Positions 1 to 7,306 of a stretch of DNA of 7,306 nucleotides are shown here, piece by piece. Where the stretch lies: IMG/VR virus record IMGVR_UViG_2706794671_000004; one strand, given 5' to 3'. The position numbers were made by a program, and so were the translations under genes. Each line of letters starts with the position of its first letter. Within the stretch, counting starts at the first letter, position 1. The notes beneath the pieces are model-generated. The model made no database searches and was not told the DNA's origin. It saw only the letters and a list, made by a program, of their open reading frames with translations. Origin of the DNA: a virus. Its lineage: Duplodnaviria; Heunggongvirae; Uroviricota; Caudoviricetes.

Positions 1-76
1 TTTCTGGTGTGAGAACCTTAAGGAAACAACATGTTGGGTGGAGCGGACAATCCAAATGGCGAATTACCGTCTTATA

Positions 77-403
77 TCACTGGCGCTGACACTTCATCAC
101 CTCCGGACGTAAATCACCATCCTTTGGTGCATTCAGAAACGCGTTCAGTGTCCCCGGTGCATCAGTCGGTGCCACATCAATATCCCCGACACGGGTTGGC
201 TGCCAGCCGTTACAGTGAAGCGCAACCTCGTAATACCCCGGCTCAGCCTCAATCACATAAGCACCGTTATTGTCCGTCACGCAAGTGGCAACAACGTGTG
301 CCACAACGGTCGGACTGGTTCTTCTGGCCCGCAGTTCAATCGCACAATTTACGACAGGTTTACCCGCCCCATCTTTCAGTACACCTGAAATCTTTACTGC
401 CAT
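77..403 (-). pseudogene. stf: Side tail fibre (Stf-like) N-terminal fragment, apparently truncated after about 108 codons
   Basis: Minus-strand ORF 77..445; from the internal ATG at 403 the product begins MAVKISGVLKDGAGKPV..NC.I.L.A.R, matching the N-terminus of lambda Stf as I recall it, with PGTLN.FL and RPEV also conserved. It ends at TGA (77..79) after about 108 aa, whereas lambda Stf is several hundred aa. All three minus-strand frames below position 77 hit stops quickly. The ATG at 445 would add 14 aa and overlap the lom terminator hairpin, so 403 is the likelier start. Confidence 0.55.
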
Positions 404-1133: not shown

Positions 1134-4100
1134 TCAGCTAATCGTGATGCCTGCAGTGGCTTTCTTCATCACCACAACCAGCAAATCGCTGATACTTGCT
1201 GTGGGATACCAGCCATTTACCAGCCATGCCGATACAGAAAACTCCAGCGTCATGTGACCGTGACCGGCAGGCATATCAATAACACCCGTATATATCAGCG
1301 TATTATCCAGGGTCGTTCGGTTATAAATTTCAGCACCGTTTTTCTTCACTATCAGGCGGCATGACGAATAAATATTGTTATTCTTCCGCTCATGTTTAGC
1401 ACCGCGAAACGCCACCGCGGGAATAACAATTTGCCGATCAAACGGCTGATCGTCATAAACCCTGACGGTAATGGTCCCTGATGGCCACCTCTCCGGTGCC
1501 CGGGAGTCCCGTGGGAAAGGTTTGCCCACTGTTTTAACGAGATCGCCTTCAATCTGGTTCGCGGACAATTTTCCCAGAACCCGACAGTTCTTATTAATCG
1601 NNNNNNNNNNNNNNNNNNNNNNNNNNNNNNNNNNNNNNNNNNNNNNNNNNNNNNNNNNNNNNNNNNNNNNNNNNNNNNNNNNNNNNNNNNNNNNNNNNNN
1701 NNNNNNNNNNNNNNNNNNNNNNNNNNNNNNNNNNNNNNNNNNNNNNNNNNNNNNNNNNNNNNNNNNNNNNNNNNNNNNNNNNNNNNNNNNNNNNNNNNNN
1801 NNNNNNNNNNNNNNNNNNNNNNNNNNNNNNNNNNNNNNNNNNNTGCTGGCGTATTCTCAATACCGGCACCGATACCCGCAATATAAAGGCGTCCGTCCTT
1901 CATCTGTTGCAGCTTCACAGCCCACATGCTGTTCAGGTTATTATTTGTATCAACCTGAACTTTCTGTATCTGCTGGATTGCAGCACTCTGATTTTCCAGT
2001 TTTTTATTGACGGTTTGCGTGATTTCATTGCTGACATTCGTAATGGACGTCCTGATTTCAGTCAGGTCCGGCGCAAGCTGACCGTTATCAATCTGCGTCC
2101 ACAACTCCTTGCCGAGATGCGTTTTATTGATCAACCCTTTATAAAAATTCAGATAACCTTCTGCATCATCGCTCGCCCGACCGATGGCCTCCACAAATGC
2201 CGATTTGCCAACGGTGTTCACACTGCGAACGTAAAAATAATAATCATGGCCCGGCCTGATATTGATACTGGCGGCTATCCAGTACAGCGCCGTGCCAAGA
2301 TAGCGGGCGCTGGTTTCAACCTGCCTGATATCCGCAATCCGCTTTTCCGAAAACCAGAACTCAAACTGCACCGTCGGGTCATATACAGCCAGTTTCGGGA
2401 CCGCCGTTATCTGAAAATACCCCGGTATCAGTTCAATAGTGACAGGCGCTGCCGGTGCCGCAATCCGGAACGATACCGACGCCGGATCGCCCTGCTGCCC
2501 CCGGGCATTTACCGCCCGGACTGTCAGACTGTAATTCCCCAGCGCCAGCTGCCTGAAGCGGTATGTGGTTTCCGTCGTCCTGGCTGTGCTGACCAGCCGC
2601 TCACTGCCGTCGTCCGCTGCCACGGTCAGGCGAAGCAGGAAGCTCACACCCTTCACCACCTTCNNNNNNNNNNNNNNNNNNNNNNNNNNNNNNNNNNNNN
2701 NNNNNNNNNNNNNNNNNNNNNNNNNNNNNNNNNNNNNNNNNNNNNNNNNNNNNNNNNNNNNNNNNNNNNNNNNNNNNNNNNNNNNNNNNNNNNNNNNNNN
2801 NNNNNNNNNNNNNNNNNNNNNNNNNNNNNNNNNNNNNNNNNNNNNNNNNNNNNNNNNNNNNNNNNNNNNNNNNNNNNNNNNNNNNNNNNNNNNNNNNNNN
2901 NNNNNNNNNNNNNNNNNNNNNNNNNNNNNNNNNGATTGCCACTTCCGTCAACCAGGCTTATCAGCGTGGTACCGGAGGACGGCAGCGTGATTTCACGGTC
3001 GAGCGTCAGCGTCCGGGTCTGGCTGTTCACCGCCAGTACGCGACCACCGGTGCTGATACCGGCATAATCATCATCGCAGATTTCAATGACATCACCCGGT
3101 ACATGGCGAAGCCCTTCTGCGCCCACGCTGAAGTCCACGGTCTGCGTTTCCAGCAGTTCCGTTTTAATCAGCCACAGCCCGGCTCGGTGTGCCTGCCCCC
3201 GGCTGGTACAGCCAAAGGCATCCATCTTCGTGACATTACGACCGTAACGGGCAATGGCCTGCGTATCCTCCACAAGCTCTGTCGCCGTCTCCCAGCCGTT
3301 ATCTGGGTCAATCCAGTTCACCTCAACGGCATTATGGCGGTCCTTCAGGGCGCTGAAGCTGTAGCGGAACGGCGCGCCATCGTCCGGCATCACCACATTA
3401 CTGCGGTTATAGGTCCACACCTTATCCGACGGTCGGTCCTGCACGAACGTCAGCATCTGTCCGTTCCATACCGGCATACAGCGCATCGCCGAGCAGAAAT
3501 CACTGAGAACATCCCACGCCTTACGCTGTGTGGTCAGGTAAGAGTTACAGGTGATGCGCGGCTCCGTGCCGCCAAATCCGTCCGTCACTGACTGGTCGCA
3601 GTACTGGCCGATGACATACAGCGCCCATTTGTCCACATCTGCCGCACCAAGACGTTTCCCCATGCCGTAGCGCGGATGAGTGAGCATGTCCCACAGACAC
3701 CAGGCCATGTTGTTGCTGTATGCTGGCTTAAGCGTTCCGTCCCAGATACCGCTGTATTGCCGCGTCTGCGGGTTATAGTTCGACGGCACCTGCAGAATGC
3801 GCCCGCGAAGATGATAATTGCGACTCACCTGCTGGTTACCGAACTGCTCTGAATCCACCTGCACGCCGACCAGCGCCGTGTTCGGGTAGCACTGTTTCAC
3901 ATCGATGATTTCGGTGTACGACGACCAGAGCGTTTTGTTCTGCAGCTGGTCTGTGGTGCTGTCCGGTGTCATCCTGCGCATCCGGATATTAAACGGGCGC
4001 GGCGGCAGGTTACCCACCACCACCGAGGCCAGATACTGCGAAGTGGTTTTGCCCTTAATGGTGATGTCTTTTTCCGTCACCCAGCCACCGTTACGCTGTA

Positions 4101-4522
4101 TCTGAACCAGCAGGCGGACTTCCGACGGATTCCGGTCACNNNNNNNNNNNNNNNNNNNNNNNNNNNNNNNNNNNNNNNNNNNNNNNNNNNNNNNNNNNNN
4201 NNNNNNNNNNNNNNNNNNNNNNNNNNNNNNNNNNNNNNNNNNNNNNNNNNNNNNNNNNNNNNNNNNNNNNNNNNNNNNNNNNNNNNNNNNNNNNNNNNNN
4301 NNNNNNNNNNNNNNNNNNNNNNNNNNNNNNNNNNNNNNNNNNNNNNNNNNNNNNNNNNNNNNNNNNNNNNNNNNNNNNNNNNNNNNNNNNNNNNNNNNNN
4401 NNATCCACCGGACCGTCAACCGGCCCTTCGCTGATGGCATCAATCACACTCAGCAACTGCGTGGATTTCAGGTTGTCCTTCGCTTCGCGCGGGGTATGCC
4501 CCTTACTGCTGCCTTTACCCAT
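1134..4522 (-). CDS. J: Tail tip / central tail fibre host-specificity protein J (interrupted by three N-runs; reading frame not continuous across them)
   Basis: N-terminus at 4522 (ATG) reads [34 protein letters not shown], matching lambda gpJ. The middle segment 2934..4139 ([30 protein letters not shown]...SLVDGSGN) and segment 1844..2663 ([32 protein letters not shown]...MWAVK) are also J-like. The C-terminus 1134..1600 (..[43 protein letters not shown]...[14 protein letters not shown], stop TGA 1134..1136) aligns to the lambda J C-terminal receptor-binding region but is divergent. The span is 3389 nt, not a multiple of 3. Confidence 0.85.
1601..1843. other. Run of 243 N (masked or unresolved sequence) inside J
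   Basis: Counted directly from the sequence. Confidence 1.
2664..2933. other. Run of 270 N (masked or unresolved sequence) inside J
   Basis: Counted directly from the sequence. Confidence 1.
4140..4402. other. Run of 263 N (masked or unresolved sequence) inside J
   Basis: Counted directly from the sequence. Confidence 1.
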
Positions 4523-4582: not shown

Positions 4583-5224
4583 TCAGCGACCAATCACCAC
4601 AACCTGACCACCATCCCCTTCGTCTGCCGTGCTGATCTCCTGAGAAACCACACGTGACCCCACGCGCATTTCACCGTACAGAACGGGCAGAACATTGCCC
4701 TGGGCAACCATGTTATCCAGTGACGAGAAATACGTGTTCTGCTTACCGTTATCCGTTGTCTGTGTACGGGGAGTTCTGGCTTTCGGTGCCAGCATCTGTG
4801 CAACACCGCCAAGCGTCATACTGGCACCGAGAGAAAACAGCAGATTACTCGCCATAATTCCTACCCCCGGCATCCATATAGCAACCGCCATAACAGCCGC
4901 CCCCAGCACCGCCTGAAACACACCGCCACTTTTAGCTCCCACCAGACGCGGTACTATGTGGATCACTGCACCATTTGCCAGCGGCTCATTAAGACGGGCA
5001 GACAATTCGGTTTCACCTGCATCACGCCCGGCAATGCGCACCTGATACCAGCCGTCACTCAGTTTCTGACGAAACGCCGGGAGCTGTGTGGCCAGTGCCC
5101 GGATGGCTTCAGCCCCCGTTTTCACACGAAGGTCGATGCGGCGACCAAATCGTTGTAAATCCCCGTAAAGGCAGATGCGCGCCATGCCCGGTGACGCCAG
5201 AGGGAGTGTGTGCGTCGCTGCCAT
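4583..5224 (-). CDS. I: Tail assembly protein I (N-terminal ubiquitin-like domain family)
   Basis: 213-aa ORF, MAATHTLPLASPGMARICLYGDLQRFGRRIDLRVKTGAEAIRALATQLPAFRQKLSDGWYQVRIAGRD... and C-terminal ...NGKQNTYFSSLDNMVAQGNVLPVLYGEMRVGSRVVSQEISTADEGDGGQVVVIGR, near-identical at both ends to lambda gpI as recalled. Its start lies 103 nt inside the 3' end of K in another frame, as in lambda. Confidence 0.92.
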   Translation of the reverse strand: MAATHTLPLASPGMARICLYGDLQRFGRRIDLRVKTGAEAIRALATQLPAFRQKLSDGWYQVRIAGRDAGETELSARLNEPLANGAVIHIVPRLVGAKSGGVFQAVLGAAVMAVAIWMPGVGIMASNLLFSLGASMTLGGVAQMLAPKARTPRTQTTDNGKQNTYFSSLDNMVAQGNVLPVLYGEMRVGSRVVSQEISTADEGDGGQVVVIGR

Positions 5225-5865
5225 TTGTCGGTGTACCTCTCTCGTTTGCTCAGTTGTTCAGGAATATGGTGCAGCAGCCCGCCGTCACCGCAGTAAATGG
5301 CGGCATGATTCGGCACCGATGAACCAAAACAGCACAGCAGCACATCGCCCGGCTGTGCCTCTGTCAGTGCGACACGGTAAAAACCCGTCACCTCCATATT
5401 GTCAAGATAGAGATTCTGACCGTTACGCCACCAGTCATCCCCGCGATGAAAATCCGGCATCTCAATCCCTGCCAGATGATAAGCATCCCGGAACAGCGTG
5501 TAACAGTCCGTCACCCCGTGCTCAAAGCGCCGCCCGGTGAGATGCGGCACACAGCGGAACTTGTGAATCGCCCCCCGGCAGACCAGCCACCACGGCAAAT
5601 CACTCTGCACCTGCAGCCGCCGGTCAGCCTCACTCAGCCAGGGCAGACCACCGGGATGACTGTGGACCAGCGCCACAATCTCACCCTGCATTTGTGCCCG
5701 CAGCCAGTCCTCCGGAGCCATCCGGAACCGTTCCTCCGGCTCACCGGAGATATTCTCGCTGGGAAGATACCTGTCTCCCTCCGGCGTTCTTACCACGAAG
5801 CCACACGACTCCGCTGGCGCACATCGCCGGGCGTGCGCCAGAATCGCTGATTCTGTCTGTGTCAT
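5122..5865 (-). CDS. K: Tail assembly protein K (N-terminal MPN/JAB metalloprotease-like domain plus C-terminal NlpC/P60 papain-like domain)
   Basis: Reading frame of the 335-aa ORF 5122..6129; the K-like sequence starts at ATG 5865 (MTQTESAILAHARRCAPAESCGFVV...), 4 nt after the L stop, giving 247 aa. It contains the JAMM-type HSHPGG...SEADRR motif and a downstream Cys/His region (GVTDCYTLFRDAYH ... NHAAIYCGDGGLLHH) consistent with NlpC/P60. An alternative internal ATG at 5721 (MAPEDW..., preceded by AGGAA) would give 199 aa. Confidence 0.88.
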   Translation of the reverse strand: MTQTESAILAHARRCAPAESCGFVVRTPEGDRYLPSENISGEPEERFRMAPEDWLRAQMQGEIVALVHSHPGGLPWLSEADRRLQVQSDLPWWLVCRGAIHKFRCVPHLTGRRFEHGVTDCYTLFRDAYHLAGIEMPDFHRGDDWWRNGQNLYLDNMEVTGFYRVALTEAQPGDVLLCCFGSSVPNHAAIYCGDGGLLHHIPEQLSKRERYTDKWQRRTHSLWRHRAWRASAFTGIYNDLVAASTFV

Positions 5866-5869
5866 GGAT

Positions 5870-6568
5870 TTACTGAGAAAGTTTATTGATGGAAAGGAAA
5901 CCGCCGAAATTACCGGTATTGTTGCGCAACTCACACCCGCGCATACACTTGCTGCATTTGTCCTTCCGGATATCCGTCGTTGGTTTGTCGAACTCGTCAG
6001 CCACTGCCCTGCCCGTGTAACCACACTCATCAGAACGGTAAGTCCACATACAGGTATTCGCCAGCATGATACGCCCCGGGAAAACCGCGCCATCCGTCTC
6101 CGTTGGTGTGGCCAGCACAAAAGAGGCACTGACCGCGCTCAGTTCGCTGCACTGCTCGATGCGCCAGCGGCTGATCACCTCCTGTTCCGGATCGGCGTCG
6201 CTGTTTCCGTTGACGAAGTTCACCGCATCCAGAAAACGGGCGTAAACCTTACGCCTGACCACCGTTCCGCCGACCAGACTCTGCAGGTCTTCCGCCATCC
6301 CGGTGACCATTCCGTGCAGGTTAGAAACCGTCAGTGTCGGACGGGCAGCACTGCCCTTGCCGTTCAGTTCAAATCCCGTCCCCTGAATGGGGTATGCCTG
6401 ATACTGCCGCCCCTGCCAGGTAACCGGCTCACCTTTTTCGTTCTGCTCATTACAGAAAAAATAACGTTCACCACCGACCTCTGTCAGATCGATTTCCCAG
6501 AGCACCACCTGGGCTGACTGAGTGAGGCGTGTCGTCTCATGATGTGTTTCCTGTGGAATATCCTGCAT
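5870..6568 (-). CDS. L: Minor tail protein L (tail tip complex; Cys-rich C-terminal region)
   Basis: 232-aa ORF MQDIPQETHHETTRLTQSAQVVLWEIDLTEVGGERYFFCNEQNEKGEPVTWQGRQYQ..., very similar to lambda gpL as recalled and of the same length. C-terminal cysteines in NTCMWTYRSDECGY and DKCSKCMRGCELR. ATG at 6568 is preceded by GGAGG (plus cctcc 6573..6577) at 5-nt spacing. Confidence 0.93.
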   Translation of the reverse strand: MQDIPQETHHETTRLTQSAQVVLWEIDLTEVGGERYFFCNEQNEKGEPVTWQGRQYQAYPIQGTGFELNGKGSAARPTLTVSNLHGMVTGMAEDLQSLVGGTVVRRKVYARFLDAVNFVNGNSDADPEQEVISRWRIEQCSELSAVSASFVLATPTETDGAVFPGRIMLANTCMWTYRSDECGYTGRAVADEFDKPTTDIRKDKCSKCMRGCELRNNTGNFGGFLSINKLSQ

Positions 6569-6577: not shown

Positions 6578-6907
6578 CTATGCCACGACCTGTTCAAAAT
6601 CTGCCGTTATGGTTACCCACAACGCCCCCACGCTTGCCGACCATTTACGACAAACCACCCTGATCGGCTTCCAGTCATAAGGTGGCGTCCACTGAAATGC
6701 GCGGACGCCACCGTGCCGTTCCAGAAAGGCTTTTAAAAATGGGTGTTCACCTTTACGAACACGTATCTTCACGCTGTAAGTCGACAACTGGTTATTCAGT
6801 CCCGCCGCACGACGCTGTTCATAACCATCGCCCAGCTTCACTGTCACCACTTTCGGCTCTGATACCACATTCATATCCGGGCGCACTTTCCAGTGAAACG
6901 TCTCCAT
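6578..6907 (-). CDS. M: Minor tail protein M
   Basis: 109-aa ORF METFHWKVRPDMNVVSEPKVVTVKLGDGYEQRRAAGLN...HGG..F.WTPPYDW...FEQVV, similar to lambda gpM (also 109 aa as recalled). Its ATG (6905..6907) overlaps the H stop TAA (6907..6909) by 1 nt (TAATG). Confidence 0.92.
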   Translation of the reverse strand: METFHWKVRPDMNVVSEPKVVTVKLGDGYEQRRAAGLNNQLSTYSVKIRVRKGEHPFLKAFLERHGGVRAFQWTPPYDWKPIRVVCRKWSASVGALWVTITADFEQVVA

Positions 6908-7306
6908 TACCGGTATGCTCCACTTAACCGGCCACCATCACGGGCCTGCTGTTGCATAAAGTCCGCGGCCGCTTTTTTCCCGAGGTCATAAACCACCTTC
7001 AGGGCAGCCGGACCTATCTGCCCGTTCGTGCCATCGTTATTGATCTCAATGTTGTACTGCGGGGCAAACATCACCATGCCTGAACCACCAGTATCCGCCA
7101 CACCCCCCAGCTTACCATCAGCACCGCGACGCAGTGGCAGAATGGCTTCAGGTCCCGCTTCCCCCATCACACCCGCGCCTTTTGCAAAAGCAAAAAACGT
7201 CGGACGGTTAACCACCGTGCCACTGTAGCGACTCAAATCAGCAGACTGAGGTAGCCTGAGTTTAACGGACACTCCTTCCTGAAATAGAATGGCATCAGAA
7301 GGAGCT
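6907..7306 (-). CDS. H: Tail tape-measure protein H, C-terminal end (partial; gene continues beyond the window edge)
   Basis: The frame is open from the window edge (7305) down to stop TAA at 6907..6909. It encodes ...APSDAILFQEGVSVKLRLPQSADLSRYSGTVVNRPTFFAFAKGAGVMGEAGPEAILPLRRGADGKLGG..., resembling the lambda gpH C-terminal region and sitting in the H position upstream of M. The GTG at 7272 in the ORF track is not the true start. Confidence 0.8.
   Translation of the reverse strand, partial: APSDAILFQEGVSVKLRLPQSADLSRYSGTVVNRPTFFAFAKGAGVMGEAGPEAILPLRRGADGKLGGVADTGGSGMVMFAPQYNIEINNDGTNGQIGPAALKVVYDLGKKAAADFMQQQARDGGRLSGAYR

Follow-up and report, generated by a model that had tools for sequence, protein, structure and literature searches.

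In draft assemblies built from short reads, SSPACE-type scaffolding leaves gaps whose size is an estimate (PMC5320598). The stretch of DNA analysed here (the window, 7306 nt in full) carries three runs of N inside a single tail gene, J, and these N-runs resemble such scaffold gaps in that they lie between collinear contigs, are about 240-270 nt long and are off by 1 to tens of nucleotides. The likeness extends to the scaffold ends, which lie in IS repeats, and to a sister draft that has its gaps elsewhere in J; no difference in kind from SSPACE-type scaffold gaps was found. As for the gene itself, the closest described system is gpJ, the tip attachment protein of bacteriophage lambda (PDB 8iyk, 8k35, 8xcg), with which J shares the gene order M-L-K-I-J-lom-stf and the series of Pfam domains. 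J differs from lambda gpJ in its length (1159 residues, compared to 1132 in lambda) and in being placed inside a prophage remnant truncated by IS elements. This remnant is similar to the prophage pseudogenes that arise by IS-driven genome decay in Shigella, since IS600 interrupts H and IS21 interrupts stf. In contrast to those pseudogenes, J is undisrupted in every resolved base and in every finished copy.

When the window was read from its letters only, the frame of J appeared to change phase at each of the three N-runs. On the evidence given below, we consider it about 95% probable that these frameshifts are an assembly artefact, in which the N-runs are scaffold gaps with estimated lengths, and not biology.

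The tail module and its IS boundaries

The tail genes of the window are all on the minus strand. Based on the public gene calls, Pfam and the ORF list, a fragment of H was placed at 6907-7272, M at 6578-6907, L at 5870-6568, K at 5122-5865 and I at 4583-5125 (or up to 5224), and the public gene calls placed lom at 467-1066 and a truncated, N-terminal part of stf at 77-445. One scaffold end, the last 58 nt (7249-7306, minus strand), is the terminus of an IS600 element (IS3 family) that truncates the tape-measure gene H. E. coli relatives match the reverse-complemented window only from base 59, which is the IS600 boundary, and the adjoining DNA in the finished-genome locus L006 matches sites annotated as IS3-like element IS600. 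As a result of the IS600 element, only about 121 codons from the C-terminal part of H are left. At the other scaffold end, the side tail fibre gene stf is truncated by an IS21-family element, whose terminus makes up the first 91 nt (1-91, minus strand; TGTCAGCGCC...). The IS21 end has a 100% match that starts from exactly that base, is about 2131 nt long and is annotated as IS21 istA/istB, and the match to E. coli relatives ends at window position 92, the IS21 boundary. The stf gene is cut by this element after about 118 codons, and the 122-aa ORF in the public gene calls reads into the IS. Taken together, these results show that the prophage is a defective remnant which has been eroded by IS elements. 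The remnant is conserved across finished Shigella sonnei genomes. Short-read contigs typically end just inside repeats, and the location of both scaffold ends inside IS600 and IS21 copies is thus a sign of a short-read scaffold.

In the finished-genome locus L006, J lies at 8703-12182, which corresponds to about 1955955-1959434 of CP023645.1. This J has six Pfam domains above the curated cut-offs, in the order FNIII-A_GpJ, Phage-tail_3, Ig_J, Ig_J_second, Phage_Tail_Tip and Ig_GpJ_C, and the pieces of J in the window carry the corresponding parts. Residues 1-836 of J align with residues 1-836 of 8iyk_J (E = 0, 2138 bits). Gene calls and Pfam place J downstream of M-L-K-I and upstream of lom and stf, both in the source record and in its relatives. 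Within the lambda gpJ family, the biology of which is already well known, this gene is unremarkable. The C-terminal receptor-binding part is the most variable region of J, with a mean identity of 73-87% among 89 J variants. The C-terminal third (residues 867-1159; window 1134-1950) is closer to the PDB chain 9wca, 'A8 gpJ 713' (E = 3.9e-182), than to 8xcj, a C-terminal fragment deposited as Tip attachment protein J (E = 4.3e-160), and because of this sequence relationship, the receptor specificity of this J may differ from that of lambda (LamB).

Two further features were seen in and around J. The public annotation of the source record calls a 162-aa antisense ORF at 3103-3591 (plus strand), which is most likely spurious because it gave no hit in Pfam and is contained entirely within J. 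On the minus strand, a terminator-like hairpin followed by a T-run is found just after J (1096-1115; GGGCACCAGAAATGGTGCCT followed by TTTTTATT) and another just after lom (420-439; GCCCGCTGGTTCAGGCGGGC followed by TTTTTGT), in a window whose total of terminator-like sites is not above the shuffled expectation.

Frame phases of J and the stretches under the N-runs

The N-runs of the window (n = 3) are at 1601-1843 (243 nt), 2664-2933 (270 nt) and 4140-4402 (263 nt), and they hide 776 of the 3389 bases of the J frame, or 23% of the gene. The minus strand of every resolved J piece was translated in all three frames, and the phase was defined as the highest coordinate of a codon mod 3. In each resolved piece, a single frame was open and matched J. 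The phases of 1, 0, 1 and 2 that the sequence-only reading had assigned to 4403-4522, 2934-4139, 1844-2663 and 1134-1600, respectively, were reproduced by the three-frame translation, and its J span of 3389 nt (1134-4522) was the same on recount. Its codon-to-codon gaps of 262, 266 and 242 nt were incorrect, although they were rightly said not to be multiples of 3. The first full codons have their tops at 4137 (in 2934-4139), 2662 (in 1844-2663) and 1598 (in 1134-1600), and the gaps from the last to the first complete codon are 265 nt (4138-4402), 272 nt (2663-2934) and 245 nt (1599-1843). The earlier values were off by a whole number of codons, which leaves the residues mod 3 (1, 2 and 2) and the conclusion that the frame is broken unchanged.

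The four pieces were next aligned to J of the finished genomes. Piece 1 (4403-4522, minus strand, phase 1) starts with the ATG at 4522 and comprises codons 1-40, with 100% identity to residues 1-40 of the finished-genome J. N-run 1 (4140-4402), which covers the rest of codons 41-128, has 263 N compared to 262 nt in the finished genomes, an error of +1. Piece 2 (2934-4139, minus strand, phase 0) consists of the final 2 nt of codon 128, the whole of codons 129-529 and the first nucleotide of codon 530; it has 100% identity with 0 gaps and carries part of FNIII-A_GpJ as well as Phage-tail_3. N-run 2 (2664-2933) covers codons 530-644 and has 270 N compared to 343 nt, an error of -73. Piece 3 (1844-2663, minus strand, phase 1) consists of the last nucleotide of codon 644 and codons 645-917, with Ig_J, Ig_J_second and the start of Phage_Tail_Tip. 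N-run 3 (1601-1843) covers codons 918-1005 and has 243 N compared to 262 nt, an error of -19. Piece 4 (1134-1600, minus strand, phase 2) begins with the final 2 nt of codon 1005, continues through codons 1006-1159 and ends with the stop, and it carries the receptor-binding domain Ig_GpJ_C. Within J, the hidden stretches are nt 121-382, 1589-1931 and 2752-3013. Together with the partial codons at their edges, they amount to 264, 345 and 264 nt (88, 115 and 88 codons), which brings J to 3480 nt and 1159 codons. In the finished genomes, J is one ORF of exactly this size with its sole stop at the end, and the length of about 1130 codons that had been expected for J was too short.

The deposited record and the finished chromosomes

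The window is the exact reverse complement of the whole draft scaffold CWTI01000174.1 (GCA_001255855.1, 7306 nt), with the same N-runs. Across the whole collection, the 154-aa C-terminal fragment of J has an exact match on one contig, CWTI01000174.1. As the window matches this scaffold with the Ns included, the Ns belong to the deposited record and the window is one entire scaffold. The accession series suggests that the assembly came from a pipeline of the Velvet/SSPACE/GapFiller type. These observations bear on the reading that the Ns were imposed later by data preparers, as a mask on real bases, and are absent from the public assembly. The description of the contig collection does mention a few N-masked stretches. 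However, the independent NCBI copy of the record has 7306 nt and identical N-runs, and the public gene calls stop there; in addition, a length-preserving mask would imply real indels, to which the objections to a J pseudogene (below) apply. A later mask is next to impossible. The public gene calls of CWTI01000174.1 split J into fragments of 40, 401, 273 and 154 aa with their edges at the N-runs, and these fragments are now separate protein-database entries.

The comparison set consisted of 12 copies of the module in nine finished chromosome records, and the matches were reached via the exact gpI and Lom protein sequences. CP019689 is Shigella sonnei 75/02, for which 23 prophage regions were reported (PMC5447701), and CP022455 is 2015C-3794, the PacBio reference for a Shigella outbreak cluster (PMC8627651). 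All of the 12 finished copies showed 0 mismatches and 0 indels to the four resolved J pieces and their anchoring flanks, and the 6530 resolved nt of the whole window showed no indel relative to the finished genomes. Hidden stretches 2 and 3 were identical in 12 of the 12 copies and stretch 1 in 11 of them; the variant copy of stretch 1 has another sequence with the length unchanged (262 nt). The sequence-only reading had leaned towards a masking or assembly artefact, and this is borne out by the 12 finished copies, in which the flanks are 100% identical and the runs of 263, 270 and 243 N correspond to 262, 343 and 262 nt. It had also proposed that the sequence under the Ns be recovered and translated to look for a single ORF, and in the finished genomes with identical flanks one 1159-codon J ORF is indeed restored. 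We infer that the hidden sequence of this isolate is the same as that of the finished genomes, and judging from the alignments, the hidden gene is almost certainly the intact 3480-nt J found in the finished S. sonnei chromosomes.

The best megablast identity was 97.8% among complete E. coli genomes and 92.6% among phages. In these E. coli and phage relatives, the sequence is longer than that of the window by 73-91 nt, and J has 3474-3480 nt compared to 3389 nt. S. flexneri SFBU1023 and E. coli ECMA0423, the two species-representative genomes with exact matches to a 120-nt pattern, were rejected as carriers of the same sequence because their other pieces differ. In E. coli GF75, GF8, GF161 and CDF6, the homologous J is truly interrupted by ISEc22, and the annotation lists it in several pieces, each called 'phage tail protein'. 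In CP019689.1 (L007/L008, L020/L021), there are two tandem H'-M-L-K-I-J-lom units, which are separated by about 9.4 kb, have IS copies between them and are both 100% identical to the window.

Gap lengths, possible real lesions and the placement of the gaps

If the N-runs are scaffold gaps, short-read contigs would have been joined by read pairs and the unassembled part between them written as an N-run. The length of each N-run would then be an insert-size estimate, wrong by +1, -73 and -19 nt, and these wrong lengths would make the frame of J seem to jump at each gap. With arbitrary gap lengths, the probability of three frame breaks is (2/3)^3 = 0.30, and with random real indels, the probability that all three fall in masked bases is (776/3389)^3 = 0.012; three frame breaks are therefore unsurprising for gaps of arbitrary length. 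The remark that three independent frameshifts inside masked segments would be an odd coincidence is thus justified for real indels, for which the figure is 0.012.

A sister draft scaffold, CWTP01000056.1 (L013), shares the I-J-lom sequence with the window and has its own N-runs elsewhere in J, where 273 N stand in for a true 262 nt and 274 N for a true 252 nt. The stretch under the third N-run of the window is resolved completely in this scaffold and is 262 nt long.

Alternatively, J could be a real pseudogene in this isolate, with indels of 1, 73 and 19 nt (or frame-equivalent ones) under N-runs of exact length. The prophage remnant is cut by IS600 and IS21, so there would be no selection for an intact J, and frameshifted tail genes are found in other relatives (e.g., H and stf in L001). 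However, the 2613 resolved nt of J contain 0 in-frame stops and 0 indels compared to the finished genomes, as do the 6530 resolved nt of the window, and all three indels would need to lie in the masked 23% of the gene (about 0.012). Furthermore, the 12 finished copies are all intact and near-identical in the hidden stretches (with one variant of the first), and the sister draft shows that N-run lengths are unreliable in such assemblies. A real pseudogene of this kind is very unlikely. The earlier alternative of a disrupted J in a defective prophage thus stands in its second half, as shown by IS600 in H and IS21 in stf, but not in its first, as 2613 nt of J are without a stop or indel.

An insertion hidden under one of the N-runs, such as an IS element, could also interrupt J in spite of the collinear flanks. 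The IS66-like element ISEc22 interrupts J in some E. coli relatives, IS elements abound in S. sonnei, and IS copies are present at both ends of this scaffold. Those true IS junctions do show IS termini at the scaffold ends, whereas the contig edges at the N-runs are J to the last base, without an IS terminus. In addition, an IS of more than 1 kb would be too long to be spanned by read pairs that give gap estimates of about 250 nt, and such an insertion is absent from all finished genomes of the lineage, which makes it barely credible. Private indels or a small insertion in this isolate, which would make J a lineage-specific pseudogene in an otherwise invariant S. sonnei remnant, are very unlikely.

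The explanation by scaffold gaps with estimated lengths is the one that we retain, and the apparent frameshifts are not a biological feature; the underlying finding is ordinary. N-runs in draft scaffolds do not keep length, and calls of frame, length or pseudogene status across them are unreliable. Spotting the artefact averts the false annotation of a J pseudogene, which is a matter of caution and not of biology.

With regard to the placement of the gaps, the mean identity over the 89 J variants was 92%, 95% and 92% in the hidden stretches and 80-95% in the resolved pieces. The hidden stretches were not generally more conserved among these variants, and a local conservation peak was seen for the third hidden stretch only. 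The G+C content of the hidden stretches is 59%, 64% and 55% compared to 56% for the whole unit; GC bias was rejected as a general cause of coverage drop-out because only the second stretch is elevated.

The contig breaks may have been caused by other tail modules of the genome that are near-identical paralogues. The 25-mers of the hidden stretches did not recur outside J in the 16.6-kb S. sonnei loci, none of the J variants compared had a mismatch-free run over any hidden stretch, and a scan of 80 J loci in IMG/VR found none from the same genome as an S. sonnei-type J copy. The closest variants, L026 and L027, have 1, 2 and 1 mismatches in the hidden stretches, about one third of the uniform-divergence expectation in a comparison that was chosen post hoc, and this lower number is only suggestive. 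The sister draft carries paralogous M-L-K copies with 98% and 85% identity, which shows that tail paralogues of the kind that breaks short-read assemblies exist in the lineage.

Between 3941 and 7534, the sister scaffold joins three incomplete tail modules by N-runs (M-L-K at 85% identity, H'-M-L-K at 98% and K-I-J-lom at 100%), and a stretch of about 400 nt of K is present to the left and again to the right of one N-run. The explanation is either a misjoin in the scaffold or a set of paralogous modules that lie side by side in that strain.
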